This document shows positions 6,578 through 55,748 of a DNA stretch of 64,000 nt, one piece after another. The first letter of the stretch is position 1; each line of letters opens with the position of its first letter. The stretch covers positions 9,310 through 73,309 of IMG/VR virus record IMGVR_UViG_3300027806_000039; one strand, written 5' to 3'. The notes beneath the pieces are model-generated. The model searched no databases. It was not told where the DNA came from and saw only the letters and a program-made list of their open reading frames with translations. Origin of the DNA: a virus. A program made the translations under genes and the position numbers.

Positions 6578-6627
6578 ACCCTTATTAGACCACGCGAGCG
6601 GCAACACTTTCGCTCGGTAACGCCTCT

Positions 6628-7236
6628 TCACACCGCCGACAGTAGCGGAGTCTCAATGTACGCGCCCCACTGGTCGGCCATCGCCGCTGCGATCCCTTCG
6701 TAGGTCTTGCTTCTGATCTTCCAGCGGTCGGGCGACGGGGCCAGTTTGTTCTGCCCGCTCGCGGTCTGGTTCTCCCAGCGATCCCGGTGCTCCAGCACGT
6801 TCGTCGCCCGCAGATGAGGCAAGCCCTTTAGCCAGAGACAGGTAGCCTTCGACTCTGGGTGGCCGAACTGCCAAGGCTGGATGGTCTGGTCGGGCTTCCG
6901 CCAGAGCGATGACATGATGCAGACCGGGTTTTCTATGGCAATGTGCGGTATATCGGCCTTTGCTAGCCGCATGAAAAACGACACGCTCGCCTGCTGCCTG
7001 CCGTCCATTCGCTTCGCTTGGAAGTGCCTCGCCCCGCTTACGGACAGGTCGGTGCATGGCGGGTGGGCGATCATCAAGTCCCACGGGTAGTCCAGAACAT
7101 CGCGGACATCGCCTTGGTAGTGCGGGCCGGGCGTCTCGGTCGGCAGAAGGTCGCATGACATCGCCTCATGCCCGAGAGCCAAGAAGGCGTCCCGCACGGC
7201 ACCACTGTACTCACAAGCGATCAGCACCCTTGCCAT
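6628..7236 (-). CDS. Phage C5-cytosine DNA methyltransferase-like protein (copy 1)
   Basis: VLIACEYSG (motif I-like), AHPPC (catalytic PC), IENP. Confidence 0.8.
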   Translation of the reverse strand: MARVLIACEYSGAVRDAFLALGHEAMSCDLLPTETPGPHYQGDVRDVLDYPWDLMIAHPPCTDLSVSGARHFQAKRMDGRQQASVSFFMRLAKADIPHIAIENPVCIMSSLWRKPDQTIQPWQFGHPESKATCLWLKGLPHLRATNVLEHRDRWENQTASGQNKLAPSPDRWKIRSKTYEGIAAAMADQWGAYIETPLLSAV

Positions 7237-7242
7237 GACCGC

Positions 7243-7270
7243 AGATTACCGAGCGTGGCAACTGGGTCAA
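7243..7270 (-). promoter_or_regulatory. Putative promoter for a leaderless MTase transcript
   Basis: Minus strand TTGACC-cag-TTGCCA-N7-TAATCT-GCGGTC-ATG. Confidence 0.55.
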
Positions 7271-7302
7271 CGCTCGTTCAGAAGCGCGACCGCACCTGAT
7301 TT

Positions 7303-7533
7303 CTATCGTTTGGTCCGCTCCAGAAGCGCCCGCAGCGCTGACGAAATACGCAGGCACTCGTCCTTGTCTGGTGGACGATGATGGCCGATTGCACTCAGTT
7401 CTGAGTCGGCAGCGACAATCGCTTCCAGTTCCGCGTCGGTGAGCGTGAGCCGATGGCTCCAAGAATCAACGGTTTGTAACGACCCGTCCTCGTTCACTCC
7501 GATGATCGGCCGTGCTGGCGTCCACTTGTCCAT
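7303..7533 (-). CDS. Hypothetical phage protein (LTDAELEAI...LRALLER type), copy 1
   Basis: ORF with purine-rich RBS (GAGAGGG) before MDKWTP. Confidence 0.55.
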   Translation of the reverse strand: MDKWTPARPIIGVNEDGSLQTVDSWSHRLTLTDAELEAIVAADSELSAIGHHRPPDKDECLRISSALRALLERTKR

Positions 7534-7565
7534 CGCGTCCCTCTCTGATTTCAGTAGCGCAATTG

Positions 7566-7901
7566 CTAAAAGTCGCCGCCGCATGACCCAGAATCAAAAC
7601 TGCTTCCTGAGTCATACGAGCCACTGTCGTAACTGCTGCCTCCAGAATCGTATGAACTAGAGTCATACGACCCAGCCCCAGAATCTACCTCCGGCGTCTG
7701 GTGGCAGTGGTGGTCTTCCGATGTGTTCATCATGTCGCCAAGCATCCCTCCAGCGAGGTTGCCGCCAAGCAATCCGCCTACAAGTCCGTCGTTCGTGGCG
7801 TAGCCGAGGGCAACAGACTGCACAAAACCATCGTCAGACGATGCAGGCACGGCAGTGACGATTGCGTGCTTCGGCTTCTTTTTTCTGAGCCAGCCAAACA
7901 T
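7566..7901 (-). CDS. Hypothetical protein with Gly-rich segment and YDSG/YDSS repeats, copy 1
   Basis: AAGGAG RBS; GLVGGLLGG; SYDSSSYDSGGSSYDSGSYDSG tail. Confidence 0.65.
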   Translation of the reverse strand: MFGWLRKKKPKHAIVTAVPASSDDGFVQSVALGYATNDGLVGGLLGGNLAGGMLGDMMNTSEDHHCHQTPEVDSGAGSYDSSSYDSGGSSYDSGSYDSGSSFDSGSCGGDF

Positions 7902-8282
7902 GGAAACTCCTTTGGTTTCGTAGATAAGAAACGTCTTTACCTGCGGCGTGTAGTGTCAGGTTCCTTCGCAAAAAAACTGCCGGATCATACGTGCAATCCG
8001 ACGAGATTCGTTGCATTTTGCATATGTTGCGGGCGTAACATATCGAATCAGATATGTTTCACAAACGAGATTCTGTAAGCATTAGCGGTGCATTTCTCTT
8101 ACAGAACAGAGCCTGTCACTTTTCGACAGTTTGTGTAGTGCCGGTGCCTGCGGGTCGCGGTGCCGGTTTATCTTTCCGGTCGCTGCCGCAAGCTGTCGCC
8201 GCCGGCGCGGCGTTGCTGTCCCGCTCGGGATCGTCGGCATCGAAATCGCACGTTTTCGACTCGGTCTGTCCCGCTCGGGAAA

Positions 8283-8498
8283 TCATACGAGAAGCTCCAC
8301 AAGCTCATGCGGGATCAACTCGCGAACGGCTTCCAGTTCGCGTGTCGCCTCGTCACCGATCTCGGCGTATTTGAGCCGGCCCCGAATCGCCTGCTGGATC
8401 GCCTCCAGGGCGATCAAGGCGTCCCGGCCCGCGAGGCAGTACCGATGCTCGCGGGCGTCGTCGGGGTCGCTGCAATCGAACCGGAGGATGGCTTGCAT
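8283..8498 (-). CDS. Hypothetical protein
   Basis: MQAILRFDCSDPDDAREH...RGRLKY; ATG 6 nt after a -10-like hexamer. Confidence 0.65.
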   Translation of the reverse strand: MQAILRFDCSDPDDAREHRYCLAGRDALIALEAIQQAIRGRLKYAEIGDEATRELEAVRELIPHELVELLV

Positions 8499-8504
8499 GA
8501 CCGC

Positions 8505-8532
8505 AGCCTATGCGATGCGTCAATCGGGTCAA
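8505..8532 (-). promoter_or_regulatory. Putative promoter, leaderless
   Basis: TTGACC-cga-TTGACG-N7-TAGGCT-GCGGTC-ATG, same geometry as 7243-7270. Confidence 0.55.
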
Positions 8533-8566
8533 CGCTCGTTTTATCGCGATTTGCGATTAGCGAAAT

Positions 8567-8696
8567 GCCACTGGGGCGGCCCACTCGTCGCCAAGCCGTT
8601 GTCGGGCTGCGTTACGTCTCGCCCCTGCCCGCCGCCAGCCTGCGCGAGGCGTTAGCTCCAGTGTGGCACTGGGCGACTGGCGGAAGGCTTAGTGTT
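8567..8696 (-). ncRNA. Candidate structured ncRNA, copy 1 (family unidentified)
   Basis: Intergenic; homologous to 56017-56143 with conserved cores and structure-preserving stem changes. Confidence 0.55.
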
Positions 8697-8722
8697 TTGG
8701 TCTGTACTCTGTGGGTGTACGG

Positions 8723-9040
8723 TCACTCGCGCGGCGGATCGGGCGGGAGCAACGCGACCGCTTCGGCCCAAGGCAGCACCTCCACCGCAGCGCTCAGCAC
8801 CGTCTTGTCCGCAGCCTCCCACATTGCGTGCAGAAGCCCGCCGGGTTCGATCTCTGTGAGAACATCGGCACACAGCATCAACCGCCCATCGGTCAGCGTG
8901 CGAGGCACAGGGACGCAGTTAGGCGAGCCATAAACCGCGTGCAAATCCGCGAGCCGAAAGGCAAGCTGCGAATTGAAAACCAACGCGAGGCTCTTAGCTT
9001 CGGCGTCAGAGATTGGAAGTGTCAGTTCGCTTAGTTTCAT
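8723..9040 (-). CDS. Hypothetical protein, paralogue of 56745-57065 (possible fibre chaperone)
   Basis: Shared LTLPIS...DGRLML...EPGG.LH.MW...AVEVLPWA.AVALLPPDPP. Confidence 0.75.
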   Translation of the reverse strand: MKLSELTLPISDAEAKSLALVFNSQLAFRLADLHAVYGSPNCVPVPRTLTDGRLMLCADVLTEIEPGGLLHAMWEAADKTVLSAAVEVLPWAEAVALLPPDPPRE

Positions 9041-9921
9041 GTTCGATTTAGTGCAGAGCGGAAAGCTGACATTGCGGTTGTGTAAGCAGACACTTGCGAT
9101 GCAGTCATAGTTTGTCCGATTGAATACGCACTTATCCGTGCGTTGACCCTCTCGCCCACAGTTTGAGCCGCGCCATGCGCCCCGCCAAAAACGGCGAAGC
9201 CGTGCGCGTCTGGGTAGGTGATGGATGTTGTTGCGTCAGTGCCTTCGGGTGCGCCATTGCGATAAAACGTAGGCCAAGCGCCGACAAGGTGGCCGGCACC
9301 AATGTCGGATGCGTTTATCAAAGTCCCAAAATCACCAGAGTACGGGCCGTAGACGCCAAACGTGCAGCATCTATTTGTGCTGCCCGTTCTGGCGTCCAAG
9401 TTTGCAAGCCAACCGCCAAAAGACCCCGTCTCACCGGCCTGCCTGGCTCTATAGACGCTGATTATTGAACGAAAGCTGGTTTGCGTGTTTGCAGAGCGAA
9501 TGTCTGCCGATAGGTGTAGATTTGCCGCTGCGGTGACGTTGCCAGGAACCCCAGTCAGCAGTGACTTGGTGCTTCCATTGCCTTGCAATCCAGCCGACGA
9601 TCCTGTGTTATTGAAATCAGTGCCGACGAAATTGTTATTGGTATCGGTGACAAGTCCACGCGCCGACGCCGTCAGGCTCTCAGCCCTATAAAGCGGCACC
9701 AGAGCCGCCGCAAGCTGGTCGCCGCAGAACAGGTTCAGCCGGTAGAAGCGGTCGCGGATGCCAGCGGCGTTGATGCTGGCACAGAACGTCGAAACCGCCG
9801 CCAGCGTGTTGCTGCTGACGGTGCCGCCGTTGGTCGTGACGCGGGTCACCCAGTCCAGGGCGTCCGGGTGGACGGCGGTGCCGCTGGCTCGCGGGCGCAG
9901 GAGTCGTGGGCTAAGTGGCAT
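9037..9921 (-). CDS. Putative virion adhesion/lectin-fold (LamG/ConA-like) protein, paralogue of 57062-57937
   Basis: MPLSPRLLRPRASG N-terminus; GLQGNGSTKSL; YSIGQTMT...FRSALNR C-terminus. Confidence 0.6.
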   Translation of the reverse strand: MPLSPRLLRPRASGTAVHPDALDWVTRVTTNGGTVSSNTLAAVSTFCASINAAGIRDRFYRLNLFCGDQLAAALVPLYRAESLTASARGLVTDTNNNFVGTDFNNTGSSAGLQGNGSTKSLLTGVPGNVTAAANLHLSADIRSANTQTSFRSIISVYRARQAGETGSFGGWLANLDARTGSTNRCCTFGVYGPYSGDFGTLINASDIGAGHLVGAWPTFYRNGAPEGTDATTSITYPDAHGFAVFGGAHGAAQTVGERVNARISAYSIGQTMTASQVSAYTTAMSAFRSALNRT

Positions 9922-9952
9922 GGCGCGGCGTTACTGTAGGGATGTAAGGTCG

Positions 9953-10213
9953 TCAGTTCTGGTCGCGCCCAGCGTCGGTGCCGGTCGCGGTCATCTTCGG
10001 CTGTAGGGCGTACAGGAGCTTCGTCTGCTCCGTGATCGCCTTGGCAATCTCTCGCTGCGTCTCCCGCAGTTCCTTCACCGTTGTACGGTGTTCGTCAAGC
10101 AACGGGATCAACAGGTCGGTGCGGATGAACCACGCCAGAAACACGGCGACCAGTGACGGGAAGCCGTACTTCGAGAGCAGCTCGAACATGGTGTCTTTGG
10201 CGGCGTCGGTCAT
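9953..10213 (-). CDS. Holin-like single-TM membrane protein
   Basis: KYGFPSLVAVFLAWFI TM segment followed by coiled coil; last gene of the peptidase cluster. Confidence 0.5.
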   Translation of the reverse strand: MTDAAKDTMFELLSKYGFPSLVAVFLAWFIRTDLLIPLLDEHRTTVKELRETQREIAKAITEQTKLLYALQPKMTATGTDAGRDQN

Positions 10214-10572
10214 TTCGTTAGCTCATGTTGCATCACTGTCAGTAGCGCCCGATGTGACAGTCGCTCCAACCACCACTTCACGAGCCACTGTACTACTGCG
10301 ACCGCAACGGCTTGCAGCAGGAACACCCAGATGAACCCGTACTCGCCAGGCTCCTGTCCGCTCATGGCCTGATGCTCACGCTTCACCGCAGTAAGCAGGG
10401 CATGCACGTAAACGTCACGCTGCTGGTTGTCGCGGCAGGCCGTGAGGTAGTCGCCAGACCAGTTGGCGACCGACAACTGCACGAGGTCGTTCACGGCGGC
10501 TCGGCCCACGAGCCTCTTGCGGATCGGCGGCAGGGCGGCCCAGCATGCTGACTGGAGGTCGGCGAGCGTCAT
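10210..10572 (-). CDS. Membrane protein
   Basis: C-terminal TM YGFIWVFLLQAVAVAVVQWLVKWW; ATGA-coupled. Confidence 0.6.
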   Translation of the reverse strand: MTLADLQSACWAALPPIRKRLVGRAAVNDLVQLSVANWSGDYLTACRDNQQRDVYVHALLTAVKREHQAMSGQEPGEYGFIWVFLLQAVAVAVVQWLVKWWLERLSHRALLTVMQHELTK

Positions 10573-10871
10573 GGCCGGCACTTTCCATCTGGGCAGGGCT
10601 GAGCCGCCTTCGGCTTTTTGCAGACGCAGGTCGGCGGGCATGGGCACGGCGTGCGGTGGCCGTCGCCATGCGTGATGTATCCCGTGCCTTTGCATTGCGT
10701 GCAGCACTCGCCCGGCTTCGGTGCAGGCTCGGGGGCGGGCGGCAACTGCCGCATCCGCACAACCTCCCGAGCCACCTCACACGCTAGGTCGGCGGTCAAC
10801 GAATCATCGGCGGGCAGGCTGGCGACGCAGCCCACGAACGCCACCGTCAGAACGATCAGCCACCGAGTCAC
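10569..10871 (-). CDS. Putative lipoprotein with Cys-rich zinc-finger-like C-terminus
   Basis: Signal LIVLTVAFVG-C; CTQCKGTG...CPCPPTCVC. Confidence 0.6.
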   Translation of the reverse strand: MTRWLIVLTVAFVGCVASLPADDSLTADLACEVAREVVRMRQLPPAPEPAPKPGECCTQCKGTGYITHGDGHRTPCPCPPTCVCKKPKAAQPCPDGKCRP

Positions 10872-11866
10872 AGGATGCCTCCAGTCCAATCGGGCAACTG
10901 CTTGGCAGGCCATCCGTTGACGCCAGAGAACGCGATGGCGTATCGGCCTTTGCAGTCCGACCATCTCGACCAGAACGCCCCATGCGGGATCTCAAGCTGC
11001 GTGCCAAGGACCGACCGGCCACCGCTGTTCCACTTTCCCCAACTGTTTTGGATCAGCACCAGCGGTTCGCCGTAGGCCCGCTTGATTTCGTCGCGGTCAT
11101 CGACGCCAAGGTAGGCGAGAGCGTGAGCCCAGCCCTGCGAAGTGCGGCGGCTGACGCCGTTGGAATCCCTTGTCTCTGACCACGATTCGCCACCACACGA
11201 AGAGATGCAGTAGCCGTTCGCCAAAAGGTCTCGCACTTCCTCGAACGTCCTGGCCCTGGTCGCCGTTCGCACGAGATGCTCAGCCCCGATCTTGCGAATC
11301 TCGGCCCCCGGCTTGGACGCTCCCCACTTACCAGCCAGCTTGCCGTCGTACCGCGTGAGGTCGATGCCGAGTTGTTCGTACCGCTTGCGGAGCCACAGGC
11401 CTGACTCTTTCAACACCACTTCGGCGGCGTGGTCGCAGCTCCACCCGTCCCCACCGTGCGAGCGAAACCAGTAGATCGCTTCACACGAGAGCACGCCGTC
11501 TCGGCGGGCCTCGTCGCTGATGTCTGGGGCACCCTCACGCAGGCCCGTCACCTCGTCAGGCTGGCCAGCGGCGATCTCGCAGGCGAGCGTGCCTAGGCAG
11601 GCGTTCCGCGTCGAGTGAGCCACACAGTCGCCACGGGTCTGAGCCGACGCGGGCAGCGAGCCGGGGAAGACTTGCTCGATCACGGCCCACGGAGCCGACA
11701 GCTTGCCAGCCCCGGAGCCGACGAGCCCGTAGCGGCGACAGGTCGTGCCGCCGTCCGGTGCCTGTCCTTGCTGGAGAAGGTACTGCGTCAGCCTCTCAGA
11801 CGCGGCAGGATCGGCGTATACGCCGACCAGCCCACGCAGATACTCCTCCTGAGGGTTCCACGGCAT
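10868..11866 (-). CDS. Papain-like (C1) cysteine peptidase
   Basis: QTRGDCVAH (oxyanion Q and catalytic C), WAHAL (H), IQNSWG (N). Confidence 0.85.
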   Translation of the reverse strand: MPWNPQEEYLRGLVGVYADPAASERLTQYLLQQGQAPDGGTTCRRYGLVGSGAGKLSAPWAVIEQVFPGSLPASAQTRGDCVAHSTRNACLGTLACEIAAGQPDEVTGLREGAPDISDEARRDGVLSCEAIYWFRSHGGDGWSCDHAAEVVLKESGLWLRKRYEQLGIDLTRYDGKLAGKWGASKPGAEIRKIGAEHLVRTATRARTFEEVRDLLANGYCISSCGGESWSETRDSNGVSRRTSQGWAHALAYLGVDDRDEIKRAYGEPLVLIQNSWGKWNSGGRSVLGTQLEIPHGAFWSRWSDCKGRYAIAFSGVNGWPAKQLPDWTGGIL

Positions 11867-11870
11867 GGGG

Positions 11871-12482
11871 TCACCCTCGCGGCGGCAGGGCCGCCCAGGC
11901 GATGGCGCGGCACAGTTCGGCAAATTCCTTCCGCAGTTCCGGCGTCACCGTCACCACGTCCTTGCCGATCACGTTGGCAAACGCGGCCTCGGTCGCCTCC
12001 CGCAGCCCGGCGTACTTGCCCGGCTGGTTGCCACCGATCCGACGCCAGCCAATGTCGAGAGCCAGAACGACGAACGCCCGCAGCGAGCGAGTGTCGGTGA
12101 AGACCACCTCGCCCACGATGGCATCGCCGCCGACCACGACCGCCGCCTTCGTCCACAACTGCGCCCAAAGCATGCGGTCTGACATAGGGGCAGAGGCGAA
12201 CGCATCTGCCACCGGCTTCACTTTCAACTGCATCGCATCACTCGGCGTCTCGACCTTCACCGACTGCACCACGCCCGGCAACGCCAGCGACGGCATCGGC
12301 ACCTTGCCCCACGCCGCCGCGACAATCAGAGCGGCTGCTGCAATCCGTGCGAGGAGTCCGGCTTTTTCTTTGCCGGCTTCCAACGCACGGTGCGCGAGGG
12401 CTTGGATTTGTGCCCGGTAGGGAGCAAGCAATAGAGCCGCCGCAGCAAGTACGGCAGCGGCACGAAGCGAAGAGTCATTCAC
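11871..12482 (-). CDS. Membrane-anchored hypothetical protein
   Basis: Two N-terminal hydrophobic helices; GTG start overlaps upstream stop. Confidence 0.6.
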   Translation of the reverse strand: MNDSSLRAAAVLAAAALLLAPYRAQIQALAHRALEAGKEKAGLLARIAAAALIVAAAWGKVPMPSLALPGVVQSVKVETPSDAMQLKVKPVADAFASAPMSDRMLWAQLWTKAAVVVGGDAIVGEVVFTDTRSLRAFVVLALDIGWRRIGGNQPGKYAGLREATEAAFANVIGKDVVTVTPELRKEFAELCRAIAWAALPPRG

Positions 12483-12784
12483 CGACGCATCCCTTCGATC
12501 TTGTCCACGGCCCACCTGACCAGCTGCTCGCCCTCTTTGGTTTTGAGCAGGGCCGCGACGTGCTTTACCAACTCGTCGTCCAGGCCGCTGTCGGTCTTGC
12601 TTGCCAGCCATTCGCACGCTTCTCCAACCACAACCGCCTTGGCATACGGATCAAACGCCGAGAGGTAGCGCTGCCCGAACGTCAGGAGCGGGGCGAAAGA
12701 ATTCAGCAGCGCGAGCTTCTCCCAAATGGTGAGGTTCGCACCGTACTGCCCGACTTCCTCGGGCGTCATTTCAAAAGCGGGCAT
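12479..12784 (-). CDS. Hypothetical protein
   Basis: GGAGG RBS; LASKTDSGLDDELV motif. Confidence 0.65.
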   Translation of the reverse strand: MPAFEMTPEEVGQYGANLTIWEKLALLNSFAPLLTFGQRYLSAFDPYAKAVVVGEACEWLASKTDSGLDDELVKHVAALLKTKEGEQLVRWAVDKIEGMRR

Positions 12785-12789
12785 GGGCG

Positions 12790-13056
12790 TCAGTCCTCCT
12801 TCTCAGAGTCTGCCGGTTCATCGCCCGCCTCTGGCAGAGGGAAAACGACCGTGTCGTTTATCCAGTCCCAGAGGTAATCCCACGTGGCTTTTGCGTCCTC
12901 GCGCACTTCGGCAAGCGAAAGCGTGTACGGCTGCCGCCAGATTTCCTCGGCCTCCCCGACGACCTTACCGCCCTCGGTCTCCATCCTGGCGTAGATGTAA
13001 CGACGCCCAAACTCGAGCGTGATCCGCCGGTCGATGTAGTCCTTGTCGGCGGGCAT
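12790..13056 (-). CDS. Hypothetical protein
   Basis: Coupled ORF in minus-strand operon. Confidence 0.6.
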   Translation of the reverse strand: MPADKDYIDRRITLEFGRRYIYARMETEGGKVVGEAEEIWRQPYTLSLAEVREDAKATWDYLWDWINDTVVFPLPEAGDEPADSEKED

Positions 13057-13448
13057 CAGTCATCCCACGACTCCATCGCGTCGCGGGCCTCGTCGGTGAG
13101 TTCAATTCTGGTGAGCGAAAACATCGTCGGCTTCGTCACCTGCCGCTCATGTCGCGTCGCTTCCGTCCACGATATTTGCACGCAGGTCACTCTTGCAGCG
13201 ATCATCGGCGCGAGACTCAGGCTCGACTCCGATGCCGCAATCTCCTCTGGCGTCGGTGCCGCAAGCCGCTCAGGCTTCTTCCGCAGCTTGCGGTCGTGAC
13301 GCTTCGGCAGATGCCAGTAGTCACGAAGACGCACGACTTGGTCGCGGCTCACCGAGTAGCGGTCGCACAGATCACGCATCGTCACATGCGCCATCCAGTC
13401 GGCGTGAAACGCGGTGACGACGATGGTGGCGGTGTTACCGCGTGGCAT
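13056..13448 (-). CDS. Hypothetical protein with HTH-like N-terminus
   Basis: MRDLCDRYSVSRDQVVRLRDYWHLPKR. Confidence 0.6.
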   Translation of the reverse strand: MPRGNTATIVVTAFHADWMAHVTMRDLCDRYSVSRDQVVRLRDYWHLPKRHDRKLRKKPERLAAPTPEEIAASESSLSLAPMIAARVTCVQISWTEATRHERQVTKPTMFSLTRIELTDEARDAMESWDD

Positions 13449-13457
13449 CCTTGCTGC

Positions 13458-14174
13458 TCATTTTTTCTTTCGAGTCTTTGCAGGAGCCGTGATCCTAGCC
13501 GCGTATGCAAATCCAAACATTCGCTGCGGCTCTGGAGGCTTTGCGCCCTTTTTGACGTTGTCCATGGCCCACATTGGCCTGAGATTCTTGTAGTTGAACG
13601 CAGCTAATTGCTGCTTTTCATCGCGCAAATCAAAAAGAGCAAGCGGGATGATGTGATCTATGTGCCACTTCCCTCTGTTATCCCAGCTCATTCCGTCCGT
13701 AAACTGCGACTCAATATGAGCAACCAAAGTATCGATGTCGCATCCGACATATGCGATTGTTCTGCCGCTTTTGGGCTTTTCTCTGTTGTTGAGTACTCCG
13801 CACAAGCGAACGCGAACTCTTTGCCGAAGCCAGAACGCATAATCAGTTGAAAGTTTTTTCTTTACATACCGAAGGTTGTATTCCCTTACGCGATCTTTAT
13901 TCCTTTTCCGCCATGCCGTTTCTCGGACGCGGTCGGCTTTTGCCCTCCGTTTAGCAGCTGCCTTTCCTTGCTCTCGCAGCCTGTCCCTATTGGCCTTGTA
14001 ATATGCTTTTCTGCTCTCACGAATCCTGTCTGCATTTTTTTCTGCATACTCCCTCGATCTCTGCAAAATCCGATCTTTGTTCGCTTGGTAATAGGCTTTT
14101 TCGTATGCGGATCTGGCCCGCTTTCTTGCCAGAAGTTCTTCTTCTTTTGGCTGTGTAGAATCAGCCATAGCCAT
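13458..14174 (-). CDS. HNH endonuclease (putative homing endonuclease)
   Basis: Basic YYxxN repeats then MSWDNRGKWHIDHIIP...NLRPMWAMDN; visibly AT-richer than its flanks. Confidence 0.85.
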   Translation of the reverse strand: MAMADSTQPKEEELLARKRARSAYEKAYYQANKDRILQRSREYAEKNADRIRESRKAYYKANRDRLREQGKAAAKRRAKADRVRETAWRKRNKDRVREYNLRYVKKKLSTDYAFWLRQRVRVRLCGVLNNREKPKSGRTIAYVGCDIDTLVAHIESQFTDGMSWDNRGKWHIDHIIPLALFDLRDEKQQLAAFNYKNLRPMWAMDNVKKGAKPPEPQRMFGFAYAARITAPAKTRKKK

Positions 14175-14244
14175 CTCTCCTATGTCAGTAGGGGTGCTGG
14201 TTAGAGACGGCGGCGGGCTGCAATCCCGTCGCCGTTTCGTCTTT

Positions 14245-15195: not shown

Positions 15196-15775
15196 ATTGG
15201 GTCACGTGCATGAAGTAAGGACTGTCGCACTTGCGTCGGTCTGCTGGGTGATGGTTCCACTCAGGCCCGAGAAACGTTGTGCGGTGATAGAGCGTGGTCG
15301 GTGTGTCAAGCCGGCCGACCGGCCCCGGCTCTACCGCGTAGCCCATCAGCCGCATGATGGCGGCCTGCTCCCACCACGGGTGATGCGGGAACTCTGCCCC
15401 AATGTTCCACGCCTTGAGCAGCACGTCTTGCATAGCCTGCGTCACGGCCCACACGCCGCAGTTCGGGACGCGCCCGCACTCGGTGTGATGTTCAACAAGA
15501 GCGTGATCCGTATCGGGCCTCAACTCTACGAACACATCATGCCACGGCTGGATGATCACAACATCGGCATCGAGCCAGAGTACGCGGTCAAAATAGCCGA
15601 GCATGCCATGAACAACAGGTAACTTGCTCCACGACGCAGGCCGTTGGCTCTGCAACTCAAACGACCGAAACTCACAGCCGTGTCGCTCCGCATACTTCGC
15701 CATGAGCGGAGCCGTGATCTCGCTCATCTGCCGATGCTCGTCGCCGCTCCATCCTGTGACGATGCACGCTTTCAC
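15140..15775 (-). CDS. Glycosyltransferase (GT34/MNN10-like)
   Basis: YAERHG, SWSKL, WLDAD, NCGV, WWEQAA motifs. Confidence 0.8.
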   Translation of the reverse strand: MKACIVTGWSGDEHRQMSEITAPLMAKYAERHGCEFRSFELQSQRPASWSKLPVVHGMLGYFDRVLWLDADVVIIQPWHDVFVELRPDTDHALVEHHTECGRVPNCGVWAVTQAMQDVLLKAWNIGAEFPHHPWWEQAAIMRLMGYAVEPGPVGRLDTPTTLYHRTTFLGPEWNHHPADRRKCDSPYFMHVTQYADRLGTIRDLASRAAGA

Positions 15776-16299: not shown

Positions 16300-16303
16300 G
16301 GCG

Positions 16304-16615: not shown

Positions 16616-16672
16616 TCTCCGTGGTGAAATTCGCCCGTCCGTGGGCGACGTGCGGAGAGTCTGCCGAGAGTG

Positions 16673-17080: not shown

Positions 17081-17101
17081 TCCGGCATCGTGGCGATGCC
17101 G

Positions 17102-17437: not shown

Positions 17438-17508
17438 CGTCGCTTCCTACTTGGTGTGTTGGATGATGCCGCCGCGCCGACCCGATGCCGACGCGGCGGC
17501 ACTGTCAG

Positions 17509-18654: not shown

Positions 18655-18762
18655 TGCGAGATTCCTTTCTCAACTGGAGTGAAACACCTACCGCCACCCC
18701 GAGTGCGAACGTGCACGCGAGGAGAAGTTCGCCAATCGCCACCATCACGAAGTCACTGATGG

Positions 18763-46291: not shown

Positions 46292-48389
46292 TGGGGGCTT
46301 CCGTCTTCGTGATATCAGTCACTTTCGCTCCAGCCTGCCCGTCGAACTCACCGCCATCCCACACGCTGACGAGCGCCGCCGGATCATCTGGCGTCGCCGG
46401 CAGTTCGAGGTCGCCAAGGTTCAGGACGCCTTCGGTCATCACATGATCGACGCGACCGATGCGACCGTCCGCGAGCGTCACCCAATCGCCTTCCGCAATG
46501 GTGCCGGGGGCGGCCCGCTTTGACGTTCGCTTGCGGCTCCGCTTCGCCTTCTTCTCCATCGGCGGCTTCACGGTTTGCGGCGAGTCGTCCACCCACACGT
46601 CCACGGCGATGCCGGCTGCCTTGGCGGCGTCGTCCTTCAGCGTCTCACCGCCGATGAGCAGCACCTGCGAGAAATACGACTTCCACTCGCCCAGCGTGTC
46701 GGCAACCAGCTGCTGGTTCTCTGGCGTGTCCTCGCGCCGCGAAATCATCACGACCGTGTTGCCGCCCTCGACCGCGTCTTCCGCGAATTCGCCCCACAGC
46801 TTCGGGTCCGCAGCGAACGTGCGGTCGAAGTCGATGCTGAGCGTCAGCGAGCGAGACTCAGGCAGCGAGCGAGCCAGCGGAGCGGCAGGACCTGCGGCCG
46901 GTTCTGTGGCCGGGGCCGGCACGGGCGTGTCTGGCACACCCGCCAGAATCGCGTCGATCTGCTGCTGCGGAATAGACGGGAAGGCTGCCGCGACCATTGC
47001 AGAGGCACCGGCCTTGGTAACGAGCCCCGTGCTCACCTGCTGAATGATCGCGATCAGCCCCGTGATTTGTGCACCGTTCAGCGAGACTTCCGCCACCTGC
47101 GGAGCGGCATCCGCGGCCGGCTGCGTGGCCGCATCGACGCCGCCTTCGACCGCCTGGCCGTCGATGCCACTGCCCGGCATCTGCTGCGCCATCACATCGG
47201 TCGCGGTGGGGCTTTCCCCAAGCGTGCCCATGTTCAACGGCCGATGCCGCACGTCGCCGCCTTCGACCGGGTTCATGTCCTCCAAGGCGAGGATGTCGTT
47301 CGTGCTGAGCACGCCAATGTCCCACATCGAGCGGTAGTAGCTTGATCGGCTCGCCGCGTCACCGCGGAGCAGCCCGCGAACGTCAAACGAAATCTGGTAC
47401 CGCTCACGGCTCGCGTCATCCGGCATCAAGTCGCGGGTGAACGCCGACTCCAAGCGACGCAGCCACGGCAAAATCGTGTGCTGCACGAAGTCGAGGCCAG
47501 CATGCTCAATCGAGCCGTAGGAGCCGCCGCCTACCTGAAGCAGGTGCATCGGGATGCGGAACAGCCTGGCGATTTCCTCGAGCTGGTACCGCCGCAATTC
47601 CAAGAACTGCGAATCGCTATTGCTGGCATACGGGATCCCATAGGGCTTGAGGCCGCCCGTGAGCACCGCCGTTTCGAAAGCGTTGTGCGGGCCGCGATGC
47701 TTGCGGTTCCACCCTTCGGCCAGTTCCCGGCGAGCCTCCGCGTTGAGCGGATTGTCGGTGCTGAGAATGAAGCCGGGCCGGGCACCGCCGCCAAAGAATC
47801 TCGCCCCGTGAATCTCGCACGCCCGTGCCAGCGCAATCGCATCGCGGCACGACTCTGCGATGCTCTCGCCATGCACGCCGTCATCGCTCGGGCCGCGGAC
47901 GTGCAGGATTTGCTCCTGCGAATAGACCGTCTGACGCCCCTTCGCCTCGCGATAGCTGTACCTCAGCCGGTCGTTCTCAATTGTCTCGACCTTCATCCGG
48001 CTCGGGTGCAGCGGCAGCACTTGGTCAGCCGCCCCCGACGCCCCCGGCTTGATCTCGCTGTAGGCGTCGCCCCACAACGCGACATGCCGCACCAGCTGCT
48101 CCCGCCACTCAAACGAGGTCTGCCATGCGTTCGGCTGAGAGTGCAGCCGGCGATAGAGAGGCAGTTCCTTAGCCTGACGCTTGCCGCCGTTGCTCAGCCG
48201 CTCGAGCACATGGAGCGGCAGGCTCGCCACCGTCTCGCTCAGGATCCGCACGCACGCGAATACCGCCGCCACCATCGTGGCGTTGTCGGCACTGATCCGC
48301 ACACCCGCCGGGCTGCGGCTGCCGCCGTCTTCATCCCACGAACGCTCGTCGCCGGGTAGCCAGAGGATGCGATTTTCGTGGGCGATCAT
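46278..48389 (-). CDS. HK97-family portal protein with long C-terminal fusion (HAD-like domain)
   Basis: AVFACVRILSETVASLP, QPNAWQT.FEW, EIARLFRIP; C-terminal IDFDRTF...VWVDD; start ATGA-coupled to terL. Confidence 0.92.
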   Translation of the reverse strand: MIAHENRILWLPGDERSWDEDGGSRSPAGVRISADNATMVAAVFACVRILSETVASLPLHVLERLSNGGKRQAKELPLYRRLHSQPNAWQTSFEWREQLVRHVALWGDAYSEIKPGASGAADQVLPLHPSRMKVETIENDRLRYSYREAKGRQTVYSQEQILHVRGPSDDGVHGESIAESCRDAIALARACEIHGARFFGGGARPGFILSTDNPLNAEARRELAEGWNRKHRGPHNAFETAVLTGGLKPYGIPYASNSDSQFLELRRYQLEEIARLFRIPMHLLQVGGGSYGSIEHAGLDFVQHTILPWLRRLESAFTRDLMPDDASRERYQISFDVRGLLRGDAASRSSYYRSMWDIGVLSTNDILALEDMNPVEGGDVRHRPLNMGTLGESPTATDVMAQQMPGSGIDGQAVEGGVDAATQPAADAAPQVAEVSLNGAQITGLIAIIQQVSTGLVTKAGASAMVAAAFPSIPQQQIDAILAGVPDTPVPAPATEPAAGPAAPLARSLPESRSLTLSIDFDRTFAADPKLWGEFAEDAVEGGNTVVMISRREDTPENQQLVADTLGEWKSYFSQVLLIGGETLKDDAAKAAGIAVDVWVDDSPQTVKPPMEKKAKRSRKRTSKRAAPGTIAEGDWVTLADGRIGRVDHVMTEGVLNLGDLELPATPDDPAALVSVWDGGEFDGQAGAKVTDITKTEAPNGYV

Positions 48390-50005
48390 ATGAAGAAGAT
48401 TTCGGGTGTGGATGCCGAGTTGGTGACGCTGTTTGCTTCCCACCCGCCGAGCGCGAATATGCACGCCACGATGCCGTCAATGCGTCCAGTGCTCTTCTTC
48501 TTCACTGGCCGAATGTCCTCGAACGCATTGCTCTCCGTGCACACACACCCAGCCATCCACGACAGCACAGGATTTCCTCCGTGCCGAATCCGCTGCTGAA
48601 GCACAAGCGACTCAAGCAACTTCGTCGGGCTGCTCATGGAGCGGAAGCCTTGCCCGAATGATTCCACGGAGAGCCCTTCCCCTTGCAGTTCCACCCCCAG
48701 CTGCACAGCACCCGTCATGTCCATCAAGACGCGCTCCACCTTGTGCTTTTTCGCGTATTGCAGCACGTACTCGCGAATAACAGCGTGGTCGATCACGTTG
48801 CCGTCGGTGGCCGTGATGTAGCCAGAGTTCACCCAGTGCTGGAACGGCTGGCGATCAGTCCGCTCGCGTTCCATAATCAGGTCGCGAGGCGCCCAAAACA
48901 TCGCATCGATGTCGAAGGTTCCATCGTCAGACGGGAACAGAGCGACGCATGCCGAAAGGTCAGTGGACTTCGACAAGTCCATGCCGATGATGCACTTCCT
49001 GCCGGCGAGTGGCTCTCGCGGCATTTCAGAGCAGGCCGCCCACTTCTCCGGGTCAAGCCACCTGTTCGTGCTCTCTACCCAGACCCCAAGCGAATATCTC
49101 AGCCAGCCATTGAGCTTCGACGGCTTATTCCTCGCCTCTTGAGCATCGGCCGCGAAGCTATCGACCGTCATGGTGATCCCCATGCCAGGATTGCACCGCT
49201 TCCATACAGCCGGGTCGAAGTAGTCATCGGTCCCGTCGGCCTTGGCCGCGAAAATCTTCCCGTAGAACCTTGGGTCGTACTTCGGATCTGCCATCACCTG
49301 CTCGGCGTATTCGTGCTGCTCCCAGCAAATCGTGTCTCGTCGGTCGCCGGCCGTCGTGATCGTCGCGAGGAGCGGCTCTCGCCTTGAGCGTCCCGAGTAG
49401 CGAAGCGCCTCGAAAAGGCGTCGGTCGGGCCATGCATGCAGTTCGTCGCAGAACACGAACGAATAGGACGGCCCTTCAGCCGCACCGGCGTCGCGTGAAA
49501 TCACCCGCATACTGCTGCCGGTCTGCTGGCAGACAATCGTCTTTCGCGAGTCGATCACTTCAAGCGACGCGGCCAACTCTGGCGAACGCTTCACCATCGC
49601 GGCTGTCTCGTCAAAGATGATCGCCGCCTGGTTTCGGTCTTTGGCAGCAATGCAACCCAACTCGCCGTCGCCCTCCATCAGCAAGTGCCAAATGGAAAGA
49701 CACGAAAGAAGCGTTGATTTAGCGTTTTTCTTCGGCACCTCAAGGTAGGCGAGCCGATACCGCCTGAGCCCGTCGTTCGTCTTCCACCCGTAGAGCGGCT
49801 CGATCACGTCGTGCTTGTGCCAGTCGAGCAGACGCATCGGCTCGCCGGCCTTCGCCGTTGGCGAGTCTTTCGTGTGGCAGCACACGGCCTCGAGGAATTT
49901 GATCACGAGGTCGGCGGCGTCACCGTTGTAGGTGTAGCCCTCGACCCACTCATGCCTTCTTCTTGAGGGCAAGGAACTTGGCGAGCGTGCTTTCTTGCTT
50001 GGCAT
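48386..50005 (-). CDS. terL: Terminase large subunit
   Basis: EVPKKNAKST (Walker A), FCDELH (Walker B), ITTAG, GMDLS, RIDGIVA. Confidence 0.95.
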   Translation of the reverse strand: MPSKKARSPSSLPSRRRHEWVEGYTYNGDAADLVIKFLEAVCCHTKDSPTAKAGEPMRLLDWHKHDVIEPLYGWKTNDGLRRYRLAYLEVPKKNAKSTLLSCLSIWHLLMEGDGELGCIAAKDRNQAAIIFDETAAMVKRSPELAASLEVIDSRKTIVCQQTGSSMRVISRDAGAAEGPSYSFVFCDELHAWPDRRLFEALRYSGRSRREPLLATITTAGDRRDTICWEQHEYAEQVMADPKYDPRFYGKIFAAKADGTDDYFDPAVWKRCNPGMGITMTVDSFAADAQEARNKPSKLNGWLRYSLGVWVESTNRWLDPEKWAACSEMPREPLAGRKCIIGMDLSKSTDLSACVALFPSDDGTFDIDAMFWAPRDLIMERERTDRQPFQHWVNSGYITATDGNVIDHAVIREYVLQYAKKHKVERVLMDMTGAVQLGVELQGEGLSVESFGQGFRSMSSPTKLLESLVLQQRIRHGGNPVLSWMAGCVCTESNAFEDIRPVKKKSTGRIDGIVACIFALGGWEANSVTNSASTPEIFFI

Positions 50006-50441
50006 CAGGCTCCACCTTGAGCGACGAACGTGCCGCAGGCGACAGGCCGAAGTCGGCTTCCAACTGCCGCAGCTGCTGGGCCAGTTTGTGAGCGATGCTC
50101 ACCTCTGGCCGTTGTGCGATGTACTTGATTTCGCCGCCATCGTTCAGGATCGGGTACGTGTCACCTTCTGCCTTCAATTTCGCACGAACGGCAAGCCACC
50201 ATTCGTACGTGTCGCAGTACCGGGCGAGCGCCTCAACGTCGGCCCGCGTCATCACCTTGACCGCCTGGAGCATGGGGAGCAGTTCTTGCCATCGCTTTGC
50301 CGCGATCTCTCCAAGGTGCAGCGGCATGGCGATGCCATCAGCTGGCGGCTCCGGCTCAGCACTATTCAGCCGTTGCTTGCCAGGATTGCCACGAAGAATC
50401 TTGAATTTCGTCGGTGTAGGACGTGGTCCGCGTCGCCCCAT
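49950..50441 (-). CDS. terS: Terminase small subunit, P27 family
   Basis: GRRGPRPTPT..K.LRGNPGK...FGLSPAAR. Confidence 0.92.
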   Translation of the reverse strand: MGRRGPRPTPTKFKILRGNPGKQRLNSAEPEPPADGIAMPLHLGEIAAKRWQELLPMLQAVKVMTRADVEALARYCDTYEWWLAVRAKLKAEGDTYPILNDGGEIKYIAQRPEVSIAHKLAQQLRQLEADFGLSPAARSSLKVEPDAKQESTLAKFLALKKKA

Positions 50442-50443
50442 CG

Positions 50444-51433
50444 TCAGCACTCCACAAAAACTAGCCGCAATTGCCCGCCAGCCTTGTTGCTCTTCCTGCC
50501 GTTACATCTCCGGCAGAGGCACTGTGAATTGTCGAACGTGTTGCCTTTGCCTGGCACGCCCCATGACAGTGGCACGATGTGATCGTGCTCAGCGTTGCGT
50601 AGGCTGGCCTTGCGGGTTCGCTTATTGATCCGCCACGGTCCTTTATGGCACTTTGTGCCGCAGTTCTGGCAGACCCAACCGTCACGCTCGCACACGGCCT
50701 CCCTAGTGCACACCGGGTCGAACGGGACGTTGTAGTGACGGCATTTCCGCCGAAGCGTGGTCGTTCGGGTTATCTTCGCCCAGCTCTCCCTGGCCTGGCC
50801 GGATCGCTCGGCACGCGGGCGATTCTTTCCCCATCGATGGTCCATTGAGCACTCGCGAGAGCAGAACTTGTTTTTGCCTTGCCACTCGTTCTTCAAGCTC
50901 CTCTTTGGAAATGGCTTGCCGCACTGAAGGCATTGAATCGAAGGACGGTGTCGCGTGTTGTGGAAACACGCCCGAGAGCAGAACTTGCCATCGCCGGCTC
51001 GGCCCGCGCGCCGCTCAAACTGTTTCCCGCAGGCTGTGCAGTTGATTACGACCCGGCTGCGGCTGGCTGTGTGGCCGCACTGCGCGGAGCAGAATTTCTG
51101 CCGTGGCCGAGATGACAGAAATGCGTTCCCGCAATGCAGGCAGCAAAGCGAGTAGATTTTGTCTCTCCCTGCCCTGTGTCTTTCGCGACTGCGCGCGACC
51201 TCTTTTGCTGCCATGCATTTTGGGCACAACTTTGGGAACGGCCCTCTTCTTGGAAGCTGTGAAAGCGATGTTCCACAGCCGACGCACGCTGCGGAACTCC
51301 ACTTTGTTGTCGCCCTTGATCTCAGCCTGGCGGAAGTGTTTTTCGACTTGCAAGACGGGCAGCGAATTGGCCAACGGCGTGCTGGCAACTGGCGTTGAAG
51401 TTGCGATCCGCAGTCGATGCATGCGCGAGACAT
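50444..51433 (-). CDS. HNH endonuclease with multiple zinc-finger repeats
   Basis: Repeated CxxCG...FCS..C units; ERDGWVCQNCG, EHDHIVP...N.QCLCRRCN. Confidence 0.88.
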   Translation of the reverse strand: MSRACIDCGSQLQRQLPARRWPIRCPSCKSKNTSARLRSRATTKWSSAACVGCGTSLSQLPRRGPFPKLCPKCMAAKEVARSRERHRAGRDKIYSLCCLHCGNAFLSSRPRQKFCSAQCGHTASRSRVVINCTACGKQFERRAGRAGDGKFCSRACFHNTRHRPSIQCLQCGKPFPKRSLKNEWQGKNKFCSRECSMDHRWGKNRPRAERSGQARESWAKITRTTTLRRKCRHYNVPFDPVCTREAVCERDGWVCQNCGTKCHKGPWRINKRTRKASLRNAEHDHIVPLSWGVPGKGNTFDNSQCLCRRCNGRKSNKAGGQLRLVFVEC

Positions 51434-53351: not shown

Positions 53352-53374
53352 TGGAAATCCACAACGCTGGCGAC

Positions 53375-53899: not shown

Positions 53900-53931
53900 G
53901 TGTCCGCCGCTGCTCATCGCCAGCGTTCTGT
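53841..53931 (+). other. attC-like recombination site 1
   Basis: GTAGAAC-caa-GCGATG[G]AGCAG[A]CGGCGG...CCGCCG-CTGCT-CATCGC-cagc-GTTCTGT. Confidence 0.75.
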
Positions 53932-53933
53932 GG

Positions 53934-54152
53934 CTACTTGCCGTCCGTTGGCGGGGCCGGGAGCGGCATCCAGTGGGTCGGCGGGTCTATCGGTTCTGGG
54001 TAGCAGAACCAACCCGCTTCACGATCAATGCCGCCTCCGCTGCTGGCGTCGTGCCATTGGCACTCGAAGACCGGGTCGCCCGGACGCCACCCGAGGACCG
54101 ACGTGCCATCTTGCGGCAGTCGTTCGCCCACCGAAATCCATTTGCTTTCCAT
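53934..54152 (-). CDS. DUF551-family protein 3
   Basis: WISVGERLP...PTHWMPLPAPP. Confidence 0.85.
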   Translation of the reverse strand: MESKWISVGERLPQDGTSVLGWRPGDPVFECQWHDASSGGGIDREAGWFCYPEPIDPPTHWMPLPAPPTDGK

Positions 54153-54180
54153 GCCCGCACTTTCGCTCGGTAACGCCTCT

Positions 54181-54789
54181 TCACACCGCCGACAGTAGCG
54201 GAGTCTCAATGTACGCGCCCCACTGGTCGGCCATCGCCGCTGCGATCCCTTCGTAGGTCTTGCTTCTGATCTTCCAGCGGTCGGGCGACGGGGCCAGTTT
54301 GTTCTGCCCGCTCGCGGTCTGGTTCTCCCAGCGATCCCGGTGCTCCAGCACGTTCGTCGCCCGCAGATGAGGCAAGCCCTTTAGCCAGAGACAGGTAGCC
54401 TTCGACTCTGGGTGGCCGAACTGCCAAGGCTGGATGGTCTGGTCGGGCTTCCGCCAGAGCGATGACATGATGCAGACCGGGTTTTCTATGGCAATGTGCG
54501 GTATATCGGCCTTTGCTAGCCGCATGAAAAACGACACGCTCGCCTGCTGCCTGCCGTCCATTCGCTTCGCTTGGAAGTGCCTCGCCCCGCTTACGGACAG
54601 GTCGGTGCATGGCGGGTGGGCGATCATCAAGTCCCACGGGTAGTCCAGAACATCGCGGACATCGCCTTGGTAGTGCGGGCCGGGCGTCTCGGTCGGCAGA
54701 AGGTCGCATGACATCGCCTCATGCCCGAGAGCCAAGAAGGCGTCCCGCACGGCACCACTGTACTCACAAGCGATCAGCACCCTTGCCAT
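54181..54789 (-). CDS. Phage C5-cytosine DNA methyltransferase-like protein (copy 2)
   Basis: Translation identical to 6628-7236. Confidence 0.8.
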   Translation of the reverse strand: MARVLIACEYSGAVRDAFLALGHEAMSCDLLPTETPGPHYQGDVRDVLDYPWDLMIAHPPCTDLSVSGARHFQAKRMDGRQQASVSFFMRLAKADIPHIAIENPVCIMSSLWRKPDQTIQPWQFGHPESKATCLWLKGLPHLRATNVLEHRDRWENQTASGQNKLAPSPDRWKIRSKTYEGIAAAMADQWGAYIETPLLSAV

Positions 54790-54855
54790 GACCGCAGATT
54801 ACCGAGCGTGGCAACTGGGTCAACGCTCGTTCAGAAGCGCGACCGCACCTGATTT

Positions 54856-55086
54856 CTATCGTTTGGTCCGCTCCAGAAGCGCCCGCAGCGCTGACGAAAT
54901 ACGCAGGCACTCGTCCTTGTCTGGTGGACGATGATGGCCGATTGCACTCAGTTCTGAGTCGGCAGCGACAATCGCTTCCAGTTCCGCGTCGGTGAGCGTG
55001 AGCCGATGGCTCCAAGAATCAACGGTTTGTAACGACCCGTCCTCGTTCACTCCGATGATCGGCCGTGCTGGCGTCCACTTGTCCAT
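54856..55086 (-). CDS. Hypothetical phage protein, copy 2
   Basis: Identical to 7303-7533. Confidence 0.55.
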   Translation of the reverse strand: MDKWTPARPIIGVNEDGSLQTVDSWSHRLTLTDAELEAIVAADSELSAIGHHRPPDKDECLRISSALRALLERTKR

Positions 55087-55118
55087 CGCGTCCCTCTCTG
55101 ATTTCAGTAGCGCAATTG

Positions 55119-55454
55119 CTAAAAGTCGCCGCCGCATGACCCAGAATCAAAACTGCTTCCTGAGTCATACGAGCCACTGTCGTAACTGCTGCCTCCAGAA
55201 TCGTATGAACTAGAGTCATACGACCCAGCCCCAGAATCTACCTCCGGCGTCTGGTGGCAGTGGTGGTCTTCCGATGTGTTCATCATGTCGCCAAGCATCC
55301 CTCCAGCGAGGTTGCCGCCAAGCAATCCGCCTACAAGTCCGTCGTTCGTGGCGTAGCCGAGGGCAACAGACTGCACAAAACCATCGTCAGACGATGCAGG
55401 CACGGCAGTGACGATTGCGTGCTTCGGCTTCTTTTTTCTGAGCCAGCCAAACAT
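55119..55454 (-). CDS. YDSG-repeat hypothetical protein, copy 2
   Basis: Identical to 7566-7901. Confidence 0.65.
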   Translation of the reverse strand: MFGWLRKKKPKHAIVTAVPASSDDGFVQSVALGYATNDGLVGGLLGGNLAGGMLGDMMNTSEDHHCHQTPEVDSGAGSYDSSSYDSGGSSYDSGSYDSGSSFDSGSCGGDF

Positions 55455-55748
55455 GGAAACTCCTTTGGTTTCGTAGATAAGAAACGTCTTTACCTGCGGC
55501 GTGTAATGTCAAAGTTCTTCGCAAAAAAACTGCCGGATCATATTGGCAATCCGACGCGATTCGTCTGTTCTCAAATACGATTCGGGCGTGTATCGCCGGT
55601 GCCTGCGGGTCGCGGTGCCGGATTATCGGGCCGGTCGCTGTCGCAAGCTGTCGCCGCCGGCGCGGCGTTGTTGTCCCGCTCGGGCAGATTCTCGCCCTGG
55701 CGGTCGCTTTGTCCCGCTCGGTGCAGCGTAGCGGACCCGTCAATCGGG

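Follow-up and report, generated by a model that had tools for sequence, protein, structure and literature searches.

Gene content of the window and its repeat

The window analysed here, a stretch of 64,000 bp, corresponds to bases 9310-73309 of a linear virus record of 73,309 bp that carries its own rating of "100% complete". All called genes except one are located on the minus strand. The window contains an exact direct repeat, R, whose two copies are identical at 1,348 of 1,348 bp, are spaced by 47,553 bp and include three whole ORFs. The block between the copies (46.2 kb, or 47,553 bp with one R added) belongs to a phage hereafter called B and the flanks belong to another one, A. Left of R, the two copies have no similar surroundings (16-37% per 100-nt block compared in register). 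Right of R, the similarity reaches 99.4% over 1,407 nt and continues as blocks of 92, 75, 70 and 87% that end at about 9956 and 57974, respectively.

6605-7952, unstranded: R copy 1, separating the early-side flank of B from the tail module of A
54158-55505, unstranded: R copy 2, separating the head-side island of A from the terminase-side flank of B

Phage A was delimited by family-profile matches for the head-side module and by family matches and composition for the tail module.

57971-64000, minus: head-side module of A
62345-63811, minus: lambda-family portal (PF05136, 177 bits)
60468-62348, minus: protease/capsid fusion (PF25209, 123 bits, and a partial Mu gpT match)
60043-60372, minus: cement/decoration protein (PF09956, 87 bits)
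57971-58942, minus: collagen-repeat fibre, within the head-side module
1-6604, minus: tail module of A
6074-6631, minus: ORF of the tail module whose start codon falls within R
5328-6074, minus: tail completion protein, tail module
828-3437, minus: tape measure, tail module

The portion of the record assigned to A amounts to about 25.8 kb only, within which the searches revealed no terminase. Its tail module extends to the left beyond the window, where a 1,112-aa protein, an exonuclease and a dNMP kinase are encoded. A carries the portal, the protease/scaffold-capsid unit and the cement/decoration protein of a lambda-type head module. Concerning the initial annotation of A as a lambda/Mu-type phage, the portal agrees with the lambda part, and the backing of the Mu part consists of the partial gpT match. 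The A capsid scores 224 bits with the fusion model NF045541, under the cut-off of 525 of this model, and its best match among proteins of cultured phages is remote (29% identity over 45% of its length).

Phage B was recognized by family-profile matches.

7953-54157, minus: unique part of B
50444-51433, minus: HNH protein
49950-50450, minus: TerS
48386-50005, minus: TerL
46278-48389, minus: portal (PF04860, 318 bits)
45275-46291, minus: S78 protease (124 bits)
43643-45007, minus: capsid (PF05065, 108 bits)
41541-42140, minus: adaptor
39992-40774, minus: tail completion protein
38397-38744, minus: chaperone
34874-38092, minus: tape measure
30578-31648, minus: exonuclease
28755-29666, plus: tyrosine integrase (PF00589)
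25117-26067, minus: Sak4-like protein
23368-24189, minus: second recombinase-like gene
20543-21367, minus: second HNH protein
19762-20565, minus: replication initiator
17509-18654, minus: clamp

B also encodes a primase-like protein. Its head module is of the HK97 type, the matches to PF04860, S78 and PF05065 following the terminase in this order and all being above cut-off. The initial annotation had described an HK97-type phage placed between 1,348-bp direct repeats with A flanking it, and this is indeed the arrangement of the record. It had also counted two portals, two capsids and two tape measures; the portals match PF05136 and PF04860, and the capsids are the PF25209 fusion and a PF05065 protein. 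Moreover, B deserves the description "complete-looking" that it had been given, since the inner block and one R together carry terminase, head, tail, integrase and replication genes.

The best match of the B TerL among proteins of cultured phages is remote (38.5%), and a near-identity search of positions 1-20000 against cultured phages returned no match. The sole close genome match, TerL at 83% on a 1.3-kb contig from a Microbacteriaceae bin, is too weak for a host assignment. The tetranucleotide correlation is 0.977 between the left and right parts of A and 0.970-0.977 within B, versus 0.900-0.948 between A and B; in composition, the left part of A thus agrees with its right part and not with B. 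A has a GC content of 65.1% and B one of 61.9%.

The shared cassette and its methyltransferase-like protein

R and the islands to its right include the following features.

6628-7236, minus: C5-cytosine-methyltransferase-like gene, 202 aa (second copy 54181-54789)
7264-7277, minus: 14-nt motif GGGTCAACGCTCGT, family D4 (also 8526-8539, 54817-54830 and 55746-55759)
7296-7544, minus: 249-bp indel in R, holding a 76-aa ORF (7303-7533) and flanked by an 8-nt direct repeat, CTGATTTC
7566-7901, minus: 111-aa ORF in R without family match (second copy 55119-55454)
7953-9956, minus: diverged island of B, with ORFs 8283-8498, 8723-9040 and 9037-9921; phrog_17104
55506-57974, minus: diverged island of A, with ORFs 55749-56099, 56217-56681, 56745-57065 and 57062-57931

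The 202-aa protein matches phrog_757, "DNA methyltransferase" (E 2.4e-71), and has no match in Pfam, NCBIfam or PDB sequences. Its structural model has a pLDDT of 74.7, with three segments under 50, and its best Foldseek matches are C5 DNA methyltransferases (E 6.6e-6 to 5e-4, TM to query 0.40-0.52). Furthermore, PPC (59-61) and ENPV (102-105), which we take to be motifs IV and VI, are invariant across 22 homologues. The predicted fold and these two motifs are those of C5 methyltransferases such as PDB 3g7u of prophage CP-933R, M.HaeIII (1dct), M.HhaI and DNMT3A. However, the cassette protein has just 202 aa, a size that leaves no room for the usual target-recognition domain, and none is evident. 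The initial "MTase" label has the support of the fold and motifs, and none from Pfam or NCBIfam. The product is predicted to be a compact protein that is likely C5-methyltransferase-like. It has a wide distribution, with 459 stretches of viral and at least 573 of metagenome origin, and yet no Pfam or NCBIfam model exists for it.

The motif GGGTCAACGCTCGT has 4 matches versus 0.03 expected, a number that 0/100 shuffles reach. It belongs to a 45-nt element, which extends up to the start codon in the case of the methyltransferase-like gene and likewise in that of ORF 8283-8498. This element was not flagged as a promoter by a sigma-70 scan; by eye, and according to the actinobacterial consensus, it may be a promoter of the form TTGACC / 16 nt / TANNNT whose message would be leaderless.

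The nucleotide blocks of the two diverged islands are 70-92% identical, and their proteins 71% and 42% identical. The identity of the cassette between A and B spans about 1.1-1.35 kb. The initial annotation had deduced that structurally unrelated phages exchanged the island very recently. This deduction is supported, the cassette being letter-identical in phages that have no structural gene in common (blastp E <1e-4). In lambdoid and HK97-like phages, Hendrix and colleagues reportedly described mosaicism, with moron-type cargo islands located where modules meet. The present case resembles them by its small cassette, its sharp ends at gene boundaries and its variable hotspots (head/tail in A, early/terminase in B), but differs from them in that the carriers share no structural gene and the cassette is identical to the letter. 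The cassette occupies a cargo hotspot in each phage, and the content of the cargo islands differs among relatives. The lateral exchange of this small cassette between A and B is real and recent, and is ordinary phage mosaicism. It documents that genes moved very recently between phages of one freshwater community, a modest biological residue of the record.

Sequencing depth, junctions and relatives

Depth was compared in 3 contig runs among the 20 holder runs, Logan depth being the mean word depth per contig and bins being sums of contigs. In run X1, error-free contigs from the left part of A have a depth of 8.5-11.5 and B contigs a depth of 32.8-40; the R bins are at about 43, roughly the depth of A plus that of B. 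In run X18, contigs from the left part of A (3352-7958) have a depth of 81.7-93.1, and 17 B bins, from 8672 to 20000, have a depth of 0-5.9, with one at 12. The A:B ratio of contig depth is therefore about 0.25 in X1 and >15 in X18, which implies that most copies of A and B are unlinked. The coverage comparison proposed with the initial annotation thus comes out, in these public runs, on the side of misassembly.

These depths bear on the possibility that a real cointegrate existed in the source sample, formed by one Campbell-type crossover of circular B with A inside the identical cassette. When homologous recombination produces Campbell-type cointegrates, or prophages that are nested or in tandem, the insert comes to lie between direct repeats of the sequence in common. 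The record has this layout, with direct repeats of exactly the shared sequence on either side of B, as a single crossover would leave them. In addition, the gene products of B include a Sak4-like annealing protein as well as an exonuclease, and A and B are found together in many runs: 11 of the 20 holder runs carry >=0.82 of the words of a stretch made up of about 43% A, 14% R and 43% B, a co-occurrence that linkage would produce as well. However, cointegrates need spanning molecules and equal stoichiometry, and an A:B depth of 1:1 was found neither in X1 nor in X18. Moreover, an A-A-type contig is present, none of the relatives is nested, and the molecule would measure 73 kb or more, against a maximum of 50.1 kb for B-type contigs. 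Such a crossover product, one DNA with both sets of virion genes that would be a prophage or an intermediate of replication or recombination, is thus very unlikely. That the source sample held a real 73-kb molecule, a stable cointegrate in which a complete HK97-type phage separates the head genes of an unrelated phage from its tail genes and which encodes two virion types, is likewise very unlikely.

The 249-bp indel distinguishes copies of the cassette. The deletion joint 7295>7545 (8 shared letters) has a depth of 93.1 in X18, on one 1,933-nt contig, and of 8.2 in X1, where the depth of the deleted form resembles that of A, unlike that of B, a further point against a cointegrate. The X18 contig (record 22) covers 5789-7295, skips the 249 bp and continues from 7545 to 7958 with one other letter. 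Its last 12 letters occur in the window at 55512 only, on the A head side and not on the B side; it extends just 18 letters beyond R, the rule for a bridge being 31 letters. Joints with sides of <31 letters were left out (e.g. 8725>18817 and 1240>19244). The initial annotation had allowed for a collapse of two similar copies by the assembler. This reservation is justified in part: a copy of A without the 249 bp exists in X18 and X1, and both copies of the record have them. One near-identical contig among the metagenome matches listed (L084) retains the 249 bp; it connects R with the A tail genes and is 100% identical between 7671 and about 3600. The deleted form is therefore not universal among copies of A. 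Since this contig ends inside R, at 7671, it says nothing of the other side of R. R exceeds short-read length, and Logan contigs end at R.

Among relatives, nesting was found in 0/10 A-type and 0/80 B-type contigs. Seven of the 10 A-type loci hold head and tail genes of A together, and none holds B structural genes. More than 3 kb lie upstream of TerL in 31 of the 80 B-type loci; early genes of B are found there in 13 of these 31, and A head genes in none. No A tail gene occurs in the 80 B-type loci, the largest of which has 50,132 bp. In B-type relatives, the cassette is located between the early genes and the terminase, without A genes. One contig (L244) matches the window at 63123-59041 (99.3%) and 6602-3686 (92.7%), with a different island of 5.4 kb between the two. 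Two others (L004 and L005) show the A-A order and another contig (L006) the B-B order, each with a methyltransferase-like gene that is 94-95% identical. The initial observation that removal of B joins the A head genes to the A tail genes is matched by the linkage seen in L244 and L004/L005, which are relatives. For B itself, the B-B junction is deduced from relatives and from the way the depths add up in X1; no independent contig near-identical to B was found. Exact scans of viral contigs, from which the own record was possibly excluded, gave 0 matches for a 50-nt stretch of R and 0 for a 41-nt stretch of the B flank beside R.

These relatives also bear on two other explanations. A host chromosome carrying two prophages, side by side or in tandem, could have been read as one viral contig, as the integrase of B and the joint presence of A and B in many runs would allow; however, the halves of A flank B here yet adjoin in relatives, no host-like gene was found among the ORFs searched at either end of the record, and the depths are uncoupled, so that this origin is very improbable. 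That B used its tyrosine recombinase (28755-29666, PF00589), or the second recombinase-like gene, to insert itself at a site of A is exceedingly improbable: the junction repeat has 1,348 bp and three whole ORFs, no short att-like core repeats were found at the junctions, the integrase gene does not adjoin these but lies at a distance of about 21 kb or more, and B-type relatives have the cassette without any A genes.

Probable origin of the record as a composite

The record is very probably a chimeric assembly path of two co-occurring freshwater phages and not one molecule, the source sample being taken to resemble the runs examined. Of the two readings offered initially, cointegrate or figure-eight misassembly, the evidence favours the second one, by the depths, the X18 contig and the gene order of relatives. 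The composite is bounded by letter-identical copies of a sequence common to both genomes, each component is found alone with alternative junctions (X18 and L244; B-B in relatives only), and the abundances of the components are not coupled across samples (X1, X18).

The true molecules would be A, with heads, island with R and tails, and B, with early genes, island with R and terminase, B having about 47.5 kb and being closed into a circle through R. The cassette would form a single node of the assembly graph that can be entered by two paths and left by two. The assembler would have come in from the A head side, gone once around the circle of B, passed the node again and left towards the A tail genes, a route that results in A heads, R, B, R and A tails with two letter-identical copies of R. 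We infer both this route and the likeness of the source sample to the runs examined.

According to passages of two reports, regions common to co-existing viruses cause chimeric contigs in viral metagenome assemblies (PMC5610896, PMC3901335). As in the chimeric contigs of these passages, distinct genomes are joined at a near-identical region into a large contig that looks complete to automated checks; here, however, the genomes would not simply be joined end to end, since an entire circular genome would form a loop between the first and second passage through the shared node.

For curation, this means that a public record rated "100% complete" probably combines a whole phage with about 25.8 kb of a second one, the rating being misleading. 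Such a composite would skew analyses of genome size, clustering and host range. Moreover, a circular genome looped between passes of a shared node mimics a nested prophage with flanking direct repeats and hence provides a useful warning pattern for automated scans.

Two phage gene sets around an exact repeat

The source record is linear (73,309 bp), the window being its positions 9310-73309, and its completeness is rated 100% by the database. The initial annotation had described the gene sets of two phages placed around an exact repeat (R). This observation is borne out in full since R is present and the outer phage (A) and the HK97-type phage lying between the R copies (B) have separate gene sets, with no structural protein in common (blastp, E < 1e-4).

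Layout and gene content of the window
6605-7952 and 54158-55505: the two R copies, an exact 1,348-bp direct repeat (both 100%)
1-6604: tail module of A (A-left)
Right of R copy 2: head-side module of A (A-right)
A, minus-strand order: lambda-family portal (PF05136), prohead protease/capsid fusion (PF25209), cement protein (PF09956), collagen-repeat fibre, small-ORF island with R at its end; beyond the inner block, ORF starting inside R, tail completion, tape measure (PF10145), 1,112-aa protein, exonuclease, dNMP kinase
B (inner block plus one R copy, 47,553 bp), head and packaging: HNH, TerS, TerL, PF04860 portal, S78 protease, PF05065 capsid
B, tail: adaptor, tail completion, chaperone, tape measure
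B, recombination and replication: exonuclease, tyrosine integrase, Sak4-like protein, primase-like protein
B, further genes: replication initiator, second HNH, clamp
28755-29666 (plus) and 23368-24189 (minus): tyrosine-recombinase-like proteins of B, 25% mutual identity
46278-48389: B portal, 703 aa
7979-8002 (minus): terminator-like hairpin and T-run

The proteins common to A and B are confined to the three ORFs of R (100%), two ORFs of the island (71% and 42%) and a small early one (53%). GC content is 65.1% in A, 61.9% in B and 58.9% in R. Tetranucleotide correlation reaches 0.977 between A-left and A-right and 0.970-0.977 among thirds of B, versus 0.900-0.948 between A and B. The contexts left of R are unrelated (16-37% identity per 100-nt block, compared in register), and homology right of R persists while decaying: an initial 1,407 nt at 99.4% identity is followed by blocks of 92, 75, 70 and 87%, up to about 9956 / 57974. 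The hairpin directly precedes the first ORF of R, in a stretch where identity between the contexts falls from 100% to about 85%.

The gene model holds 109 ORFs, and the recombinase-like gene at 28755-29666 is the sole one called on the plus strand. The A part of the record is about 25.8 kb and is therefore a fragment; a PHROGs search of 30 of its 32 ORFs found no terminase. The closest genome match of B TerL (83%) is a 1.3-kb contig of a Microbacteriaceae bin, the remaining ones being at most 47%, which weakly hints at an actinobacterial host.

Depth, junctions and gene order in relatives

In 20 public runs (15 studies, with freshwater and fungus metagenome labels), the words of 2605-11952 are present to a fraction of 0.62 or more. 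Eleven of the 20 reach at least 0.82, and A and B therefore frequently co-occur. Depth was compared over 1-20000 in three of these 20 contig runs, all of which show a loose end at 566; a raw-read run gave no match over this stretch.

Depth (per-contig mean) in two public runs
X1: A-left 8.5-11.5 (error-free contigs); B contigs 32.8-40; R bins about 43
X18: A-left contigs 81.7-93.1 (3352-7958); R bins 65-87; B 0-5.9 over 8672-20000 (17 bins; a single one at 12)

Record 22 of X18 (1,933 nt, depth 93.1) covers 5789-7295 and 7545-7958, with a gap at 7296-7544. It extends only 18 letters past R (short of the 31 required of a bridge), and its final 12 letters have their sole window match at 55512, in the head-side flank of A and not that of B. 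The gap corresponds to a 249-bp presence/absence polymorphism (7296-7544 and 54849-55097), flanked by the 8-nt direct repeat CTGATTTC, whose deleted form loses a whole 76-aa ORF. This form goes with A in X18 and X1, the deleted joint in X1 having a depth of 8.2, which is the level of A. The full form is found in the record and in L084, a relative from another assembly.

No nested arrangement was found among 10 A-type loci (around the A tail-completion gene) and 80 B-type loci (around B TerL, 77-92% identity). A head and tail genes occur together in seven of the A-type loci, and none of the 10 has B structural genes. For instance, the relative L244 matches 63123-59041 (99.3%) and 6602-3686 (92.7%), with only a different 5.4-kb island in between (L244:4084-9472), which encodes a fibre-like protein of 682 aa along with a virion-protein-like ORF and small ORFs. 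Among the B-type loci (largest contig 50,132 bp), 31 have over 3 kb of sequence upstream of TerL, with B early genes there in 13 and A head genes in none. No A tail gene occurs in any of the 80.

Loci around homologues of the methyltransferase-like gene of R include contigs of both types. Two A-type ones (L004 and L005) carry heads, an island with a 95% identical methyltransferase-like gene, A's post-R ORF, tail completion and tape measure. A B-type one (L006) carries early genes, a 94% identical methyltransferase-like gene, TerL (84%) and portal. The island is thus housed in a variable cargo spot in A as in B.

The head/tail junction of A is a cargo hotspot in L244 and also in L245-L253. Some of these relatives have just the two island ORFs there, and a search with the window's proteins detected no island genes in others. 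The C-terminal extension of the B portal (residues 515-611) matches phrog_4919 and phrog_4256, as does a free-standing 92-aa ORF of the L244 island (L244:7639-7917). The A tape measure and distal tail region (828-3600 and leftwards) also vary between strains.

Origin of the nested layout

The nested layout most likely does not reflect a real feature, and a chimeric assembly path is the simplest account of it. R would be a single graph node common to A (a linear fragment) and B (circular), and the assembler would have gone through this node twice, with B looped in between. Such a path would leave letter-identical R copies, although in two of the runs the 249 bp are missing from A's copy. In L084, A tail genes are joined to R containing the 249 bp (100% identity from 7671 to about 3600, then 52-95% per 200 nt below, inside the tape measure). 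We consider it quite improbable that the source sample contained a real cointegrate. Integrase-mediated insertion was rejected, the junction repeat having three whole ORFs and being separated from the integrase gene by at least about 21 kb. Once the nesting is removed, ordinary phage mosaicism is left, and a composite flag is warranted for the record.

The shared cassette

The three-ORF cassette of R is identical in A and B. The A copy in X18 shows no other letter over 5789-7295 and one over 7545-7958, and the B copy in X1 (contig 7545-8390, depth 38) shows none. Since the cassette is identical while the structural genes are unrelated, its exchange is a recent one.

Its 202-aa protein (6628-7236) matches phrog_757 and has no match in Pfam, NCBIfam or PDB sequences. 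The best matches of a structure model built on 22 homologues (pLDDT 74.7) are C5 DNA methyltransferases (3g7u, DNMT3A, M.HaeIII and M.HhaI; TM to query 0.40-0.52). Furthermore, PPC and ENPV are invariant in the homologues (n=22), and the target-recognition domain seems to be absent. Homologues occur in 459 viral stretches and in 573 or more from metagenomes, and 132 of 160 loci with a homologue have nothing else in common with the record, indicating that this gene travels widely. The protein is highly conserved (72-95% identity, 21 picked homologues).

An exact 14-nt motif occurs four times (7264-7277, 8526-8539, 54817-54830 and 55746-55759; 0.03 expected). It lies inside a 45-nt element that stops at the ATG of two genes, the methyltransferase-like one and ORF 8283-8498; on the minus strand this element reads by eye as TTGACC, 16 nt, TANNNT, 6 nt, ATG. 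A sigma-70 scan made no call on this element. It may be a promoter for leaderless messages, in which case the small genes could each be transcribed separately.
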